DNA of 64,000 nt from assembly GCF_048403405.1 (NCBI RefSeq), contig NZ_CP183129.1. One strand, written 5' to 3'. Positions 30,001-36,000 of this stretch are shown piece after piece. The position numbers were made by a program. Numbering within the stretch: position 1 is the first letter of the stretch; every line of letters starts with the position of its first letter. This DNA comes from Escherichia coli. Lineage in GTDB: Bacteria; Pseudomonadota; Gammaproteobacteria; Enterobacterales; Enterobacteriaceae.

Positions 30001-33000
30001 TGTCCGGTTGAAACAAGTGCAGTGACGGCAATCGTGACAGGTTCAACTGACAATACGGGTTATTACAAAAATGAAGGTACTGCCGAAAATATTCAGATAG
30101 AGCTAAGGGATGACCAGGATGCGACGTTAAAAAATGGCGATAGCAAAACGGTTATTGTTGATGAGATCACTCGTAATGCACAGTTTCCACTTAAGGCAAG
30201 AGCTATCACGGTGAATGGAAACGCAAGCCAGGGAACGATCGAGGCGCTAATCAATGTGATCTACACCTGGCAATAACGTCGATTCGATTTTCTTAGCCTC
30301 CTTTTTAAATCAATTTTTTAACCTTAGGATATATCATGGGTAAAACAATAAGTATGAAGCTTCTGTTCGGTATTTATCTTCTATTAATGGCAGGCAAAGT
30401 TTTTGCCTTCAGTTGTAATGTCGATGGCGGGTCAAGTATTGGAGCAGGTACAACCTCTGTTTATGTTAATCTCGACCCTGTAATACAACCGGGCCAGAAT
30501 CTGGTTGTAGACTTGTCTCAGCACATAAGTTGCTGGAATGATTACGGCGGCTGGTACGACACTGATCATATAAACCTGGTACAAGGCTCAGCTTTCGCAG
30601 GCTCTCTACAGTCATATAAAGGCTCGCTGTACTGGAATAATGTGACCTACCCCTTCCCGTTGACGACAAATACTAATGTATTAGATATTGGTGATAAGAC
30701 ACCGATGCCATTACCGTTAAAACTCTATATTACCCCAGTCGGTGCGGCCGGTGGAGTTGTCATAAAAGCCGGGGAAGTTATTGCCCGTATTCATATGTAT
30801 AAAATTGCCACGTTAGGAAGCGGAAATCCGCGTAATTTTACGTGGAATATTATTTCAAATAACAGTGTTGTTATGCCAACAGGCGGCTGCACCGTTGATA
30901 GTCGTAATGTCAACGTGAATCTCCCGGACTTTCCTGGAAGCGCAGAAATACCCCTTGGCGTATATTGCTCAAGTGAACAAAAGCTCTCATTTTATCTTTC
31001 GGGTGCTACCACTGACAGTGCCAGACAAGTGTTTGCTAACACAGCACCAGATGCAACAAAAGCATCGGGAGTGGGTGTCTCTCTGATGCGTAATGGAAAA
31101 ATACTGGCTACGGGAGAAAACGTCTCCCTGGGGACAGTAAATAAAAGCAAAGTACCTCTGGGTTTAAGCGCAACCTATGGACAAACAGGAAACAAGGTTG
31201 CAGCCGGAACCGTCCAGTCAGTCATTGGTGTCACTTTTATCTATGAATAATTGTGATTTTGACATTGGTCTATGCGCTCCATTCACGAAAATTGCGCGGA
31301 TAATTATTTTGTGAAGGCTATTATCCTACATCTGTAAGAAAATCCGCGCACAATTGAAGCCAGAGTCTTATTTTTTATATTGAAAAATATGTTAATTTAA
31401 ACACTATGAGAGATGATGATTAATTTATCGTATTTAATCTTTTGTTTAACGATAATAGATTAAAATAGAAAGAGAGTAGTCCCCTACTCTTATATATCCA
31501 TGTTGACGATAATCCCTTTGTATATACTGTGCATCATCGCTATTACAAATCCTAATAATTCATTTCCACACAGGATAAGCAAATGAAGAAAAAAATTGAA
31601 TCCTACCAGGGAGCTGCCGGTGGTTGGGGTGCTGTTAAATCCGTAGCGAATGCAGTACGTAAGCAGATGGATATACGCCAGGATGTTATTGCCATGTTTG
31701 ACATGAATAAGCCAGAGGGCTTTGACTGTCCGGGATGTGCATGGCCAGATCCTAAGCACAGTGCGTCATTCGACATTTGTGAAAACGGCGCAAAAGCAAT
31801 CGCCTGGGAAGTCACGGATAAGCAGGTAAATGCCTCTTTCTTTGCTGAGAATACGGTTCAATCATTACTTAACTGGGGAGATCACGAGCTTGAGGCTGCG
31901 GGGCGTCTCACCCAGCCTTTGAAATATGATGCCGTCAGCGACTGTTACAAGCCATTAAGCTGGCAACAAGCTTTCGACGAAATTGGCGAACGCCTTCAAA
32001 GCTATAGTGATCCCAATCAGGTTGAATTCTATACTTCGGGCCGCACTTCCAATGAAGCTGCCTTTCTTTATCAGCTTTTTGCTCGTGAATACGGGAGCAA
32101 TAACTTCCCCGACTGCTCCAACATGTGCCATGAACCGACCAGTGTGGGTTTGGCAGCGAGTATCGGTGTAGGTAAAGGGACCGTGTTGCTGGAAGACTTT
32201 GAGAAATGCGATTTAGTCATTTGCATTGGGCATAACCCTGGTACAAACCACCCTCGCATGTTGACTTCGTTGCGCGCTTTAGTGAAACGAGGAGCGAAAA
32301 TGATCGCCATCAATCCTCTACAGGAACGTGGCCTGGAGCGATTTACCGCACCGCAAAACCCGTTTGAAATGCTGACGAACTCTGAGACTCAGTTGGCCAG
32401 TGCCTACTACAACGTGCGCATTGGTGGTGATATGGCGTTGCTCAAGGGGATGATGCGCCTGTTAATTGAGCGCGATGATGCTGCAAGCGCCGCAGGTCGG
32501 CCCTCATTGCTGGATGACGAATTTATTCAAACGCATACCGTCGGCTTTGACGAGCTACGCCGTGACGTTCTCAATTCCGAGTGGAAAGATATCGAGCGTA
32601 TTTCTGGACTAAGTCAGACTCAAATCGCCGAACTGGCTGATGCATATGCCGCTGCCGAACGCACCATTATCTGTTACGGAATGGGGATCACTCAGCACGA
32701 ACATGGTACCCAGAATGTACAGCAACTGGTCAATCTGCTGTTGATGAAAGGTAACATTGGCAAGCCTGGTGCGGGTATCTGCCCACTACGAGGTCACTCT
32801 AATGTACAGGGCGACCGAACCGTCGGTATCACCGAGAAACCGTCTGCAGAGTTTCTGGCTCGCCTGGGTGAGCGCTATGGTTTCACCCCACCTCATGCAC
32901 CTGGACATGCTGCAATTGCCAGCATGCAAGCAATATGTACGGGGCAGGCTCGAGCATTGATCTGCATGGGGGGCAACTTTGCACTGGCAATGCCAGATCG

Positions 33001-36000
33001 GGAAGCGAGCGCTGTACCGTTAACACAATTAGATCTGACGGTACACGTAGCCACTAAGCTTAACCGCTCTCATCTGCTGACCGCACGGCATAGCTATATT
33101 CTGCCGGTTCTGGGACGCAGCGAGATTGACATGCAAAAAAGCGGTGCGCAGGCGGTAACCGTTGAGGATTCAATGTCGATGATTCATGCCTCGCGTGGCG
33201 TGTTAAAACCCGCCGGTGTAATGCTGAAATCAGAGTGTGCAGTGGTCGCGGGAATCGCGCAGGCAGCACTACCCCAGAGCGTGGTAGCCTGGGAGTATCT
33301 GGTGGAAGATTATGATCGCATTCGCAATGACATTGAAGCTGTGCTGCCAGAGTTCGCCGACTATAACCAGCGCATCCGTCATCCCGGTGGTTTTCACCTG
33401 ATAAATGCAGCTGCTGAAAGGCGCTGGATGACGCCGTCAGGTAAGGCTAATTTCATTACCAGTAAAGGGCTGTTAGAAGATCCCTCTTCAGCGTTTAACA
33501 GTAAGCTAGTCATGGCGACAGTACGCAGTCACGATCAGTACAACACGACGATTTATGGTATGGATGATCGCTATCGAGGGGTATTCGGTCAACGAGATGT
33601 GGTCTTTATGAGTGCTAAACAAGCTAAAATTTGCCGTGTAAAAAACGGCGAAAGAGTTAATCTTATTGCGCTTACGCCAGACGGTAAGCGAAGCTCACGC
33701 CGCATGGATAGATTAAAAGTGGTCATTTACCCTATGGCTGACCGCTCACTGGTGACCTATTTTCCAGAATCGAATCACATGCTAACACTTGATAACCACG
33801 ATCCATTAAGTGGCATTCCTGGCTATAAAAGTATTCCGGTTGAATTAGAACCATCAAATTAATTCGCCTCCTCATTTCTTCTGCTGTCATCCGCACAGCA
33901 GAAGAATTCCTCATTGACCATTGTCGCGCAATTTACTCACATGTGCTAAATTAAACTGCTCGTTATAAGATATATACCTCCGCCTACAGCTGTAAGAAAC
34001 TCCGCTCAGTACTGAAGCGCCAGTCCTATTTCCTCTATTCTCCAGCCTGTTATATTAAGCATACTGATTAACGATGCTTAACGTCATTCGTTTAATAAAC
34101 ACATTTGAAATGCATGCGACCATAGTGAAAAATAAAATCACGCAAAGAGACAACTATAAAGGGATCATGTCTGTAATTGTGGTTGTCTTATTACTGACCC
34201 TTACATTGATAGCCATTTTTTCGGCAATTGATCAGCTGGGTATTTCAGAAATGGGTCGCATTGCAAGGGATCTTACACACTTCATTATCAATAGTTTGCA
34301 AGACTGAAAATAAACAGCAAATTATAAATATGAAATGTTAAAAAAGTATCGATAAAAACTTTATTGTTTTAAGGAGATAAAATGTCGCTCGTTTGTTCTG
34401 TTATATTTATTCATCATGCCTTCAACGCTAACATTTTAGATAAAGATTACGCCTTCTCTGACGGCGAGATCCTGATGGTAGATAACGCTGTTCGTACGCA
34501 TTTTGAACCTTATGAGCGGCATTTCAAAGAAATCGGATTTAATGAAAATACCATTAAAAAATATCTACAATGCACTAACATCCAGACAGTGACGGTGCCT
34601 GTTCCTGCGAAGTTTTTACGTGCTTCAAATGTACCGACTGGATTGCTTAATGAAATGATTGCTTATCTCAACTCGGAAGAACGCAATCATCATAATTTTT
34701 CGGAACTTTTGCTTTTTTCTTGCCTATCTATTTTTGCCGCATGCAAAGGTTTCATTACACTATTAACTAACGGTGTGCTATCCGTTTCTGGGAAAGTGAG
34801 AAATATTGTCAACATGAAGCTGGCGCACCCATGGAAGCTGAAAGATATTTGTGACTGCCTGTACATCAGTGAAAGCCTGTTGAAGAAAAAACTTAAGCAA
34901 GAGCAAACGACATTCTCACAGATTCTTTTAGATGCCAGAATGCAGCACGCAAAAAATTTGATACGAGTAGAAGGTTCAGTTAATAAAATTGCCGAACAAT
35001 GTGGTTATGCCAGTACATCTTATTTTATTTATGCGTTCCGCAAACATTTCGGCAACAGTCCGAAGAGAGTTTCTAAGGAGTACCGTTGTCAAAGGCACAC
35101 GGGAATAAATACGGGCAACACGATGAATGCTTTAGCTATTTGATTATTTGCTAACGAGTAGTCAACCACACACGCTACGTAAGAATTAAATGGGGCAGCC
35201 ATTTCCTGCCCCGCGTTGTTTTTAGGCGATATATTTATTGAAATAAATAAGTGACATTCATCACATATTTATGCATTTGCATAACCTGTTGCATGATTAT
35301 TTATGATCTCAATTCGGCATTTTATCAGTAAAATACAATAATTTATTAAATATCAATAGATTAGTTGTTTATCTGCGAGAAATTACTTAGTAGAATAGAA
35401 AGTAATGTCAACAGTTTATGGACTGTTATTTCTCTTTTTTTAGCTAAATCTGCTATCTCTTTATGTGACTAACTTCACTTACATCCACTTATTTCTCTTC
35501 GTAAAATTACTTTGGAATTAAGTACAATAAGAAGAGGAACATTTATGAAGTCTGCATTAAAGAAAAGTGTCGTAAGTACCTCGATATCTTTGATACTGGC
35601 ATCTGGTATGGCTGCATTTGCTGCTCATGCGGCAGATGATGTAAAGCTGAAAGCAACCAAAACAAACGTCGCTTTCTCAGACTTTACGCCGACTGAATAC
35701 AGTACCAAAGGAAAGCCAAATATTATCGTACTGACCATGGATGATCTTGGTTATGGACAACTTCCTTTTGATAAGGGATCTTTTGACCCAAAAACTATGG
35801 AAAATCGTGAAGTTGTCGATACCTACAAAATAGGGATAGATAAAGCCATTGAAGCTGCGCAAAAATCAACGCCGACGCTCCTTTCATTAATGGATGAAGG
35901 CGTACGTTTTACTAACGGCTATGTGGCGCACGGTGTTTCCGGCCCCTCCCGTGCCGCAATAATGACCGGTCGAGCGCCCGCCCGCTTTGGTGTCTATTCC

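Follow-up and report, generated by a model that had tools for sequence, protein, structure and literature searches.

EvgA promoters and their closest described relatives

Next to ydeP, Escherichia coli encodes SafA, which serves as the connector to PhoQ/PhoP, and YdeO, which heads the GadE cascade. The K-12 promoters reported to be activated by EvgA are those of ydeP, safA/b1500-ydeO, emrKY, yfdX, frc, and yegR (Masuda & Church 2003; Itou et al. 2009; Kato et al. 2000), and EvgA reportedly recognizes the consensus TTCYTACANNTGTARGAA (Masuda & Church 2003; Itou 2009). EvgA regulates ydeP and emrKY directly (PMC8174306) and binds the promoter of safA-ydeO, which form one operon (PMC9496106), with binding and activation of transcription taking place in mild acid (PMC8174306, PMC9496106, PMC4283999). 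Both promoters and their control by EvgA, which an earlier note on this DNA had taken as given, are already known in the literature. EvgA was named after its similarity to BvgA (PMC9496106), and both are homologous regulators of the NarL family. In the BvgA promoters of Bordetella pertussis (Pfha, Pfim3, and Pptx), BvgA dimers bind with a 22-bp period, beginning at a strong upstream site and ending at a poor -35 (PMC7250471), the proximal site abutting the -35 in Pfha and being co-centric with it in Pfim3 (PMC7250471). Here we show that the ydeP and safA promoters are paralogous, within which limits and since when, that they are under purifying selection, and that their fixed register is common to other EvgA promoters. 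The loci and the 18-bp inverted repeat are the same as in the published K-12 EvgA promoters, whereas our analysis adds the paralogy over ~100 bp and, for all six promoters, elements that stand in register at +20 and +42 together with a -10 at about +53 to +59 from the box. The literature that we searched, which lay outside the original EvgA papers, yielded no earlier description of the ~100-bp paralogy, of in-phase half-sites, or of a three-element architecture.

The locus and its EvgA boxes

The window, that is, the whole stretch of E. coli DNA analysed, is 64 kb long. The identities of ydeQ, ydeP, safA, and ydeO rest on 100% matches to annotated E. coli genomes, and all features given below lie on the + strand, except for the EvgA boxes, which are given without strand. 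The ydeP coding sequence (31583..33862) sits between the two copies of the promoter module described below, and a strong stem-loop just past its stop codon (33876..33906) divides it from the safA-ydeO transcription unit. There, the safA coding sequence (34110..34307, 65 aa) starts 14 nt past the module end and is followed on its 3' side by ydeO (34382..35143).

As the earlier note had recognized, an inverted repeat conforming to the EvgA consensus opens each of the two upstream segments: ATCCTACATCTGTAAGAA in front of ydeP (31323..31340), with one mismatch to TTCYTACANNTGTARGAA, and CGCCTACAGCTGTAAGAA in front of safA-ydeO (33981..33998), with two. They are the only matches with ≤3 mismatches in the window, and the same pattern applied to K-12 loci recovers the known EvgA targets emrK/evgA, frc, yfdX, yegR, ydeP, and safA. 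No box with ≤3 mismatches was found in the intergenic DNA of the gadE region, where a single 2-mismatch match lies inside mdtE. The longer pattern that had been read in the two segments is also present, as CCTACATCTGTAAGAAAATCCGCGCACAATTGAAGCCAGAGTCTTATTT from 31325 in the ydeP copy and CCTACAGCTGTAAGAAACTCCGCTCAGTACTGAAGCGCCAGTCCTATTT from 33983 in the safA copy.

A duplicated promoter module of ~100 bp

We compared the ydeP and safA-ydeO intergenic regions by Smith-Waterman local alignment and by anchored comparisons, using 2000 dinucleotide shuffles as null. Local alignment of the two regions revealed 99 bp without gaps at a constant offset of 2658, with 68/99 identical positions and a score of 37.5, to be compared with 11.4±1.6 in the shuffles (maximum 21.5, 0/2000 as high). 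Together with the anchored comparison and the conservation in orthologues (eight copies for ydeP), this delimits a ydeP copy at 31325..31438 (ungapped core 31325-31423) and a safA-ydeO copy at 33983..34096 (ungapped core 33983-34081). The left border is sharp and falls within the left half of the EvgA box, and the flanks on both sides remain at background similarity in the anchored and flank comparisons; neither the ydeP leader compared with the safA ORF nor the upstream flanks score above the shuffle mean, so that no similarity was found outside the module. The earlier note had proposed a module of ~50 bp: the conservation past the box stands, but the length does not, since pairwise alignment extends it to ~100-115 bp.

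Similarity confined to the EvgA box, the outcome that had been named as speaking against a duplicated cassette, did not occur. With the box removed, the next 140 nt of the ydeP/safA pair still reach z=8.2 (z≤2.9 for the other pairs of EvgA promoters), and 50/80 positions past the box are identical, compared with 15-31/80 in every other pair. Many of the positions that ydeP and safA share are not matched in yegR, emrK, frc, or yfdX. The similarity belongs to this pair and does not extend to EvgA promoters at large: it is collinear, has defined borders, and exceeds what shared function imposes, as expected for a segmental duplication. The pair is not listed in a repeat search with an 8-nt seed, so the module results depend on these separate alignments. 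A blastn search in distant mode for further copies in E. coli returned one place per genome, a weak search because its 11-nt seed cannot pick up copies as diverged as the paralogue.

Age of the duplication and selection on the module

The comparison set comprises 16 copies, 8 of ydeP and 8 of safA, with one outgroup species only (L005). The latter, a second Escherichia species with ~85% DNA identity, possesses both module copies and the ydeP-safA-ydeO synteny. Orthologues are alike at 80-88/99 positions and paralogues at 61-69/99; the copies cluster by paralogue: 14 diagnostic sites are fixed, and no more than 2 changes are concerted. This grouping by paralogue rather than by species means that the duplication is old: judged by this one outgroup species, it predates the split between E. 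coli and L005 and has not been followed by recent gene conversion. The pair-specific extent of the similarity and this clustering in a second species bear out the duplicated cassette suspected in the earlier note.

Across all 16 copies, 54/99 columns are invariant. Outside the box, columns shared by the paralogues are invariant among orthologues in 90/102 cases, against 40/64 for the other columns (Fisher p=1.7e-4), and this lower variability indicates purifying selection on the module past the EvgA box. Outside Escherichia, neither an EvgA box nor the module was found near the ydeP of Edwardsiella (85% aa), which shows no DNA homology upstream, and Yersinia rohdei (67% aa), or near the more distant relatives in Raoultella and Tatumella (56-57% aa), and in the three loci that were searched tblastn gave no match to either safA or ydeO. 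A peptide-pattern scan did not pick up E. albertii or E. fergusonii, from which absence of the locus does not follow.

Core promoter and start sites

Conservation across the copies places an extended -10 at 31390..31398 for ydeP (TGTTAATTT) and at 34048..34056 for safA-ydeO (TGTTATATT), with the TG, TA, and TT of TGnTAnnTT invariant in 16/16 copies. The ydeP element fits the 178-nt leader of PMC11210196, where the probe begins at -178, counted from the K-12 start codon, a probe boundary and not a stated start; with a leader of this length the conserved TGnTAATTT falls at -10. From this boundary, mapped allowing for a 1-nt indel in the leader, we infer a ydeP start at 31406 (±3 nt); positional homology at offset 2658 would put that of safA-ydeO at 34061..34064. 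By eye, all six EvgA promoters have a -10-like hexamer at +49 to +62, and the distance that separates the predicted core promoter from the box is fixed. No good -35 precedes the conserved -10 at a spacing of 16-18 bp.

The ydeP copy also contains TTGAAG-16-TATATT (31354-31381), a sigma-70-like candidate proposed from in-vitro RNA polymerase SELEX (PMC3946193). We considered it for the role of main promoter but placed it second, since neither L005 nor the safA copy conserves its -10. Its -35 coincides with a TGAAG block (31355..31359 in ydeP, 34013..34017 in safA) that is invariant in 16/16 copies and absent from the other EvgA promoters.

Half-site-like elements in a common register

Downstream of each box, an offset scan with a half-site position weight matrix (PWM) and the invariant columns point to two putative EvgA half-site-like elements. 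The first, weak and 20 bp from the start of the left half-site, is TCCGCGCA in ydeP (31343..31350) and TCCGCTCA in safA (34001..34008). The T, CGC, and CA of this +20 element are invariant in 16/16 copies, and its PWM scores are poor in both promoters (-4.1 and -4.7 bits, respectively). The second, 42 bp or four helical turns from the same point, is GTCTTATT in ydeP (31365..31372) and GTCCTATT in safA (34023..34030); in ydeP it overlaps the weak -35 or sits just 5' of it, with a centre near -32.5 that holds only for the predicted start at 31406. Both elements recur at identical offsets in yegR, emrK, frc, and yfdX. Anchoring the six EvgA promoters, which belong to only four independent promoter families, on the box reveals 5 invariant columns (post-box +9, +10, +26, +27, and +31) against 0.37 expected; 0/20000 random offsets reach that many, and the half-site PWM score peaks at +42 and +20 (P(maximum)=0.0027; P(second peak)=0/20000). 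No matching reverse half-sites were found, and there is thus no sign of complete secondary dimer sites.

Like the BvgA promoters, those of EvgA have a strong inverted repeat upstream; they may also have in common with them weaker sites along one DNA face, separated by about two helical turns, and a deliberately poor -35. They differ in spacing, which is 20 and then 22 bp instead of a uniform 22 bp, and in that the resemblance to a half-site is limited to the upstream half of each putative secondary site. By analogy, we infer that the extra half-sites may be occupied and that activation may follow a BvgA-like mechanism. A fixed three-element architecture of EvgA promoters (box near -74.5, +20 element, and +42 element co-centric with the weak -35), acting by BvgA-like spreading and copied as a whole array, is a tentative reading to which we give slightly less than an even chance.

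A proposed history and mechanism

We consider it likely that the two promoters are paralogous EvgA cassettes of ~100-115 bp that arose by an old local duplication, with a multi-site activation that may resemble that of BvgA. The duplication would have taken place in a common ancestor of E. coli and of one or more sister species within Escherichia; one copy now drives ydeP, and the second, which lies 2658 bp further downstream, drives safA-ydeO. What was copied comprises the EvgA box, the two half-site-like elements, the extended -10, the predicted start, and ~30-33 nt of leader. In each copy, and in the same register, the 18-bp inverted repeat would be centred near -74.5, with two weaker half-sites 20 and 42 bp downstream on the same helix face, followed by the poor -35, the extended -10, the start, and the first ~30 nt of the leader. 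Under mild acid, EvgS would phosphorylate EvgA, and EvgA~P bound to the box would switch on both promoters, so that the effector gene ydeP and the regulatory genes safA and ydeO receive the same input. EvgA~P may spread from the strong upstream site across the weaker in-phase sites to meet RNA polymerase at the weak -35, and the conserved stretch past the start may also serve silencing or feedback repression.

Other causes of the shared sequence

The conservation past the core promoter could also be due to other shared regulators (silencing by H-NS on the AT-rich start region, negative feedback by YdeO, or repression by PhoP) and not to EvgA or the geometry of the promoter, an explanation that would complement the duplication and that we regard as possible though rather doubtful. 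Invariant columns do reach about +18 past the predicted start, the ydeQ/ydeP spacer has been flagged as H-NS-associated (PMC3946193), PhoP represses the safA promoter, and YdeO exerts feedback on safA-ydeO and, indirectly, on ydeP (bioRxiv 10.64898/2026.05.06.723403; PMC11210196). However, inspection by eye revealed no convincing PhoP box or YdeO box, the latter an ATTTCA inverted repeat (PMC4222967), common to both copies, and the repression of ydeP by YdeO is described as indirect (PMC11210196).

With ~33 nt of the module lying past the predicted start, what is conserved might instead be an element acting in the RNA, such as a leader structure, an sRNA target, or a mini-ORF encoding MRDD(D/A). 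A putative mini-ORF of this kind, ATGAGAGATGATGATTAA, begins at the predicted ydeP start (31406..31423), its ATG...TAA being kept in 8/8 ydeP copies, including that of L005, and the evgA leader is known to carry a leader peptide, evgL. Yet the safA copy has CTG in place of ATG, the transcribed third adopts no stable or common fold (z-scores from -1.5 to +0.9) and has no Rfam match at E≤1, and the ydeP leader is not bound by CsrA (PMC11210196), which makes this explanation improbable.

Convergence, in which the two promoters grew alike independently under the same geometry of EvgA and RNA polymerase, draws on the columns that all EvgA promoters have at fixed offsets and that reveal a functional constraint on promoter sequences. 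This generic constraint covers only 5-7 columns, whereas ydeP and safA are alike at 68/99 positions without a gap, and the sharpness of the borders and the adjacency of the two copies are what a local duplication would leave; we hold convergence to be highly improbable. Finally, a chance or low-complexity resemblance restricted to the EvgA box, to which the AT-richness of both regions and the absence of the pair from the 8-nt-seed search might point, has practically no standing, being refuted by the shuffles, the box-excluded z=8.2, and the 50/80 identities.

Two promoters under one signal

An old local duplication of the promoter would explain how a single signal came to govern the effector gene ydeP together with the regulators SafA and YdeO, through the copying of a whole promoter and not through the fresh evolution of a binding site. 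The two copies also constitute a natural experiment in which the 54 positions kept in 16/16 copies mark what an EvgA promoter needs past its box, and these positions may point to a multi-site mechanism like that of BvgA. The annotation of the locus is unchanged, as both promoters and their regulator were known before. This case resembles other tandem cis-regulatory duplications in that local copying of a promoter with its activator site was followed by selection to keep both copies; it differs in that the copied DNA is confined to the promoter and the beginning of the leader, with no coding sequence in common and with unrelated flanks. As a case of duplicated regulatory DNA, it is tidy but ordinary.

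A duplicated promoter module upstream of ydeP and safA-ydeO

The window, 100% identical to E. coli strain ST2747 over 3.4 kb, carries ydeQ (30336-31250), ydeP (31583-33862), safA (34110-34307) and ydeO (34382-35143), all on the + strand. When the ydeQ-ydeP and ydeP-safA spacers were aligned locally, 31325-31438 matched 33983-34096, which confirms the paired modules described in an earlier note, whose quoted pattern we found in both segments. The alignment is collinear, running for 99 bp without a gap at a constant offset of 2658 (68/99 identical in this ungapped core), and its score of 37.5 was reached by none of 2000 dinucleotide shuffles (11.4±1.6, maximum 21.5). 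The module is thus about twice as long as the ~50 bp first claimed. Its left border is abrupt, at CCTACA within the left half of the EvgA box, and on the right the similarity fades ~14 nt ahead of the safA start codon; the DNA flanking both sides of the copies is at background level.

The EvgA consensus is reported to be TTCYTACANNTGTARGAA (Masuda & Church 2003; Itou et al. 2009), and we tested it on the window and on K-12 loci. With up to three mismatches allowed, it has only two matches in the 64-kb window, the inverted repeats ahead of ydeP (31323-31340, one mismatch) and safA (33981-33998, two mismatches), as the earlier note had proposed. The K-12 comparison loci have matches in the emrK-evgA spacer and upstream of frc, yfdX (two boxes, 38 bp apart), yegR, ydeP and safA. 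In this best-studied of bacteria, EvgA control of both transcription units has been published before: ydeP, like emrKY, is directly regulated by EvgA (PMC8174306), and EvgA binds the safA-ydeO promoter (PMC9496106). Novelty here is accordingly low. The modest additions are the ~100-bp paralogy, its age and an in-phase half-site pattern, no description of which was found in the literature consulted.

Shared ancestry versus common function

When all EvgA promoters were anchored on the box and the following 80 nt compared pairwise, ydeP and safA were identical at 50/80 positions and all other pairs at 15-31/80; likewise, with the box excluded, the local score over the next 140 nt was still z=8.2 for ydeP/safA, against z≤2.9 for the remaining pairs. 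The similarity is therefore not confined to the 18-bp box, the outcome that the earlier note had named as refuting it. Such long similarity beyond the box, specific to one pair, is not a general trait of EvgA promoters, which argues for shared ancestry and supports the proposed duplicated promoter cassette. Convergence is the less favoured reading, since only 5-7 columns are explained by the generic constraint on EvgA promoters. Chance similarity is rejected by the shuffle test and the box-excluded score.

This generic constraint can be seen in six activated promoters anchored on the box (ydeP, safA, yegR, emrK, frc and yfdX box 2), which have five invariant post-box columns: CA at +9/+10, TC at +26/+27 and T at +31 (0.37 expected under random offsets; five reached in 0/20000 trials). 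A weight matrix built from 14 primary half-sites and run along the downstream DNA gave two sharp peaks of forward half-sites, 42 and 20 bp from the left half-site start, with mean scores of -0.21 and -0.49, respectively, against a background of -9.2±2.8 (random-offset P=0.0027 for the maximum; second peak reached in 0/20000 trials). No matching reverse half-sites were found downstream of the box, and ydeP and safA themselves have only a weak +20 element. The emrK-evgA box is without these downstream elements in the evgA direction, in agreement with the reported lack of evgAS autoregulation (PMC8174306). A -10-like hexamer, judged by eye, lies 49-62 nt after the box in all six promoters.

Two further resemblances were observed. 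The neighbouring promoters of frc (15476-15485 in K-12 locus L001) and yfdX box 2 (16470-16479) have the 10-mer CTCTCTGATT in common at identical positions 23-32 after the box. This may reflect an older promoter-pair relationship, the second besides that of ydeP and safA; overall, the two promoters are not significantly similar (30/80). ydeP (31395-31406) and yegR (K-12 upstream region, L002) have in common TTA(T)ATTTAAACACTA(T)GAGAG over the -10/start region, 4 bp farther from the box in yegR; one 12-nt stretch matches exactly, and their whole-alignment score is not significant (z=1.6).

Age and distribution of the module

Scanning species-representative genomes with YdeP recovered one diverged Escherichia genome (L005), labelled E. 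coli, although its DNA is only ~85% identical to even the closest among 5,385 E. coli records. Its gene order matches that of the window, with ydeP 95.5%, safA 63% and ydeO 94% identical at the protein level, and it carries both module copies. We compared 16 copies, eight of each paralogue, from the window, K-12, a contaminated MAG contig, four diverse E. coli and L005. Orthologues are identical at 80-88/99 positions and paralogues at 61-69/99, and across both species 14 positions show paralogue-fixed differences and only two concerted change. This grouping by paralogue argues, with one outgroup species, that the duplication is older than the E. coli/L005 split and was not homogenised by gene conversion. 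Outside the box, paralogue-identical columns vary less among orthologues (90/102 invariant versus 40/64; odds ratio 4.5, Fisher p=1.7e-4), and 54/99 columns are invariant across all copies, which indicates purifying selection reaching well past the box.

Neither box nor module was found close to ydeP in Edwardsiella (85% aa) or Yersinia rohdei (67% aa), the Edwardsiella upstream DNA shows no homology, and tblastn of one locus each found neither safA nor ydeO. On these comparisons the regulatory DNA is thus specific to Escherichia, in line with a report that restricts EvgS/EvgA and SafA to E. coli and Shigella (PMC9496106). In both the Edwardsiella species (L006, L007, L009) and Y. rohdei (L008), the homology of ydeP ends at the start codon. 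The YdeP scan returned no match in species representatives of other Enterobacteriaceae, and this patchy distribution suggests horizontal transfer of ydeP. A 'Candidatus Nanosynbacter' MAG contig (L004, JARKOR010000108.1) encodes a YdeP 100% identical to that of the window, with K-12-type boxes and modules, and appears to be contaminating E. coli DNA in the bin.

ydeP was also found on plasmid pKFu015_2 (NZ_CP147132.1) of a river-water E. coli, the only one of this kind found in PLSDB, where positions 1402-4056 correspond to window 31378-34031 and are flanked by two direct copies of the Tn3-family element IS3000. Both breakpoints lie within the paralogous modules, in the AT-rich stretch ahead of the -10 (module positions 54 and 49), so that the captured piece is very nearly one repeat period long and no longer includes the EvgA box. 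Candidate readings are a preference for this target or the capture of a circle that had been excised between the repeats.

Core promoter and proposed mechanism

Counting from module position 1 (31325 in ydeP, 33983 in safA), the blocks invariant in all 16 copies are CCTAC..TGTAAGAAA (the box, 1-17), T.CGC.CA (19-26), TGAAG (31-35), GTC.TATTT (41-49), TG.TA..TTAA (66-76) and TGA...A.GAT...TAA (83-99). Positions 66-74 form an extended -10, TGTTAATTT in ydeP (31390-31398) and TGTTATATT in safA (34048-34056), with TG, TA and the final TT invariant. The ydeP leader used in a CsrA study begins 178 nt ahead of the start codon (PMC11210196); allowing a 1-nt indel, this boundary would place the transcription start at 31406 (±3), 8 nt past the -10 hexamer, and the equivalent safA start at 34061-34064. 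A second sigma-70-like candidate in the ydeP copy, TTGAAG-16-TATATT (31354-31381), was proposed from RNA polymerase SELEX (PMC3946193); we rank it behind the extended -10 because its -10 is changed to TTTATT in L005 and to CTATTC or CTTTTC in the safA copies.

Numbered from the probable start at 31406, the three EvgA elements are centred at about -74.5 (the box), -54.5 and -32.5, the last coinciding with the -35 position, and the module has no good -35. We therefore propose that EvgA~P would nucleate at the box and then extend over the in-phase weak sites to reach RNA polymerase, the duplication having presumably copied the whole array. EvgA belongs to the NarL family of regulators and owes its name to its resemblance to BvgA (PMC9496106). 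On Pfha, BvgA~P forms head-to-head dimers every 22 bp on one DNA face, from a strong upstream site to one abutting the -35, and on Pfim3 the proximal site shares its centre with a -35 that is deliberately poor (PMC7250471). If their putative weak sites are occupied by EvgA, the ydeP and safA modules would resemble these promoters in having a strong upstream box followed by in-phase weak sites, the proximal one probably at a poor -35. Other inputs may act through the columns conserved from +1 to ~+18, with H-NS, PhoP or YdeO feedback as candidates; the ydeQ-ydeP spacer has been flagged as H-NS-associated (PMC3946193), and inspection of the module gave no convincing H-NS, PhoP or YdeO sites.

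Leaders and hairpins

A leader RNA element is not supported, as fold z-scores are near 0, there is no Rfam match and CsrA does not bind the ydeP leader (PMC11210196). A putative mini-ORF, ATGAGAGATGATGATTAA (31406-31423), encodes MRDDD* (MRDDA* in K-12 and L005) and, beginning exactly at the probable ydeP start, would be leaderless; it is kept in 8/8 ydeP copies, and the safA copy has CTG there. Two diverged haplotypes of the safA leader (34070-34109) occur in E. coli: in 4619/5371 genomes, identity to the window over 126 bp is only 90-95%. An in-frame ATG at 34074 of the window haplotype would extend SafA by 12 codons; the K-12 haplotype has ATT and a stop codon there. SafA of L005 is only 63% identical, against 94-96% for YdeP and YdeO.

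Directly after the ydeP stop codon, 33876-33906 form a perfect 12-bp stem-loop (-17.5 kcal/mol, z -4.1) without a U-tract. The stem is identical in L005 (8294-8324), and the 7-nt loop is near the reverse complement (CATCCGC versus ACGGATG, 6/7 positions), which suggests a hairpin-loop inversion between the two. Downstream of the module, the ydeP leader contains a 7-bp perfect stem, AGAGTAG-TCCC-CTACTCT (31473-31490), largely kept in L005.
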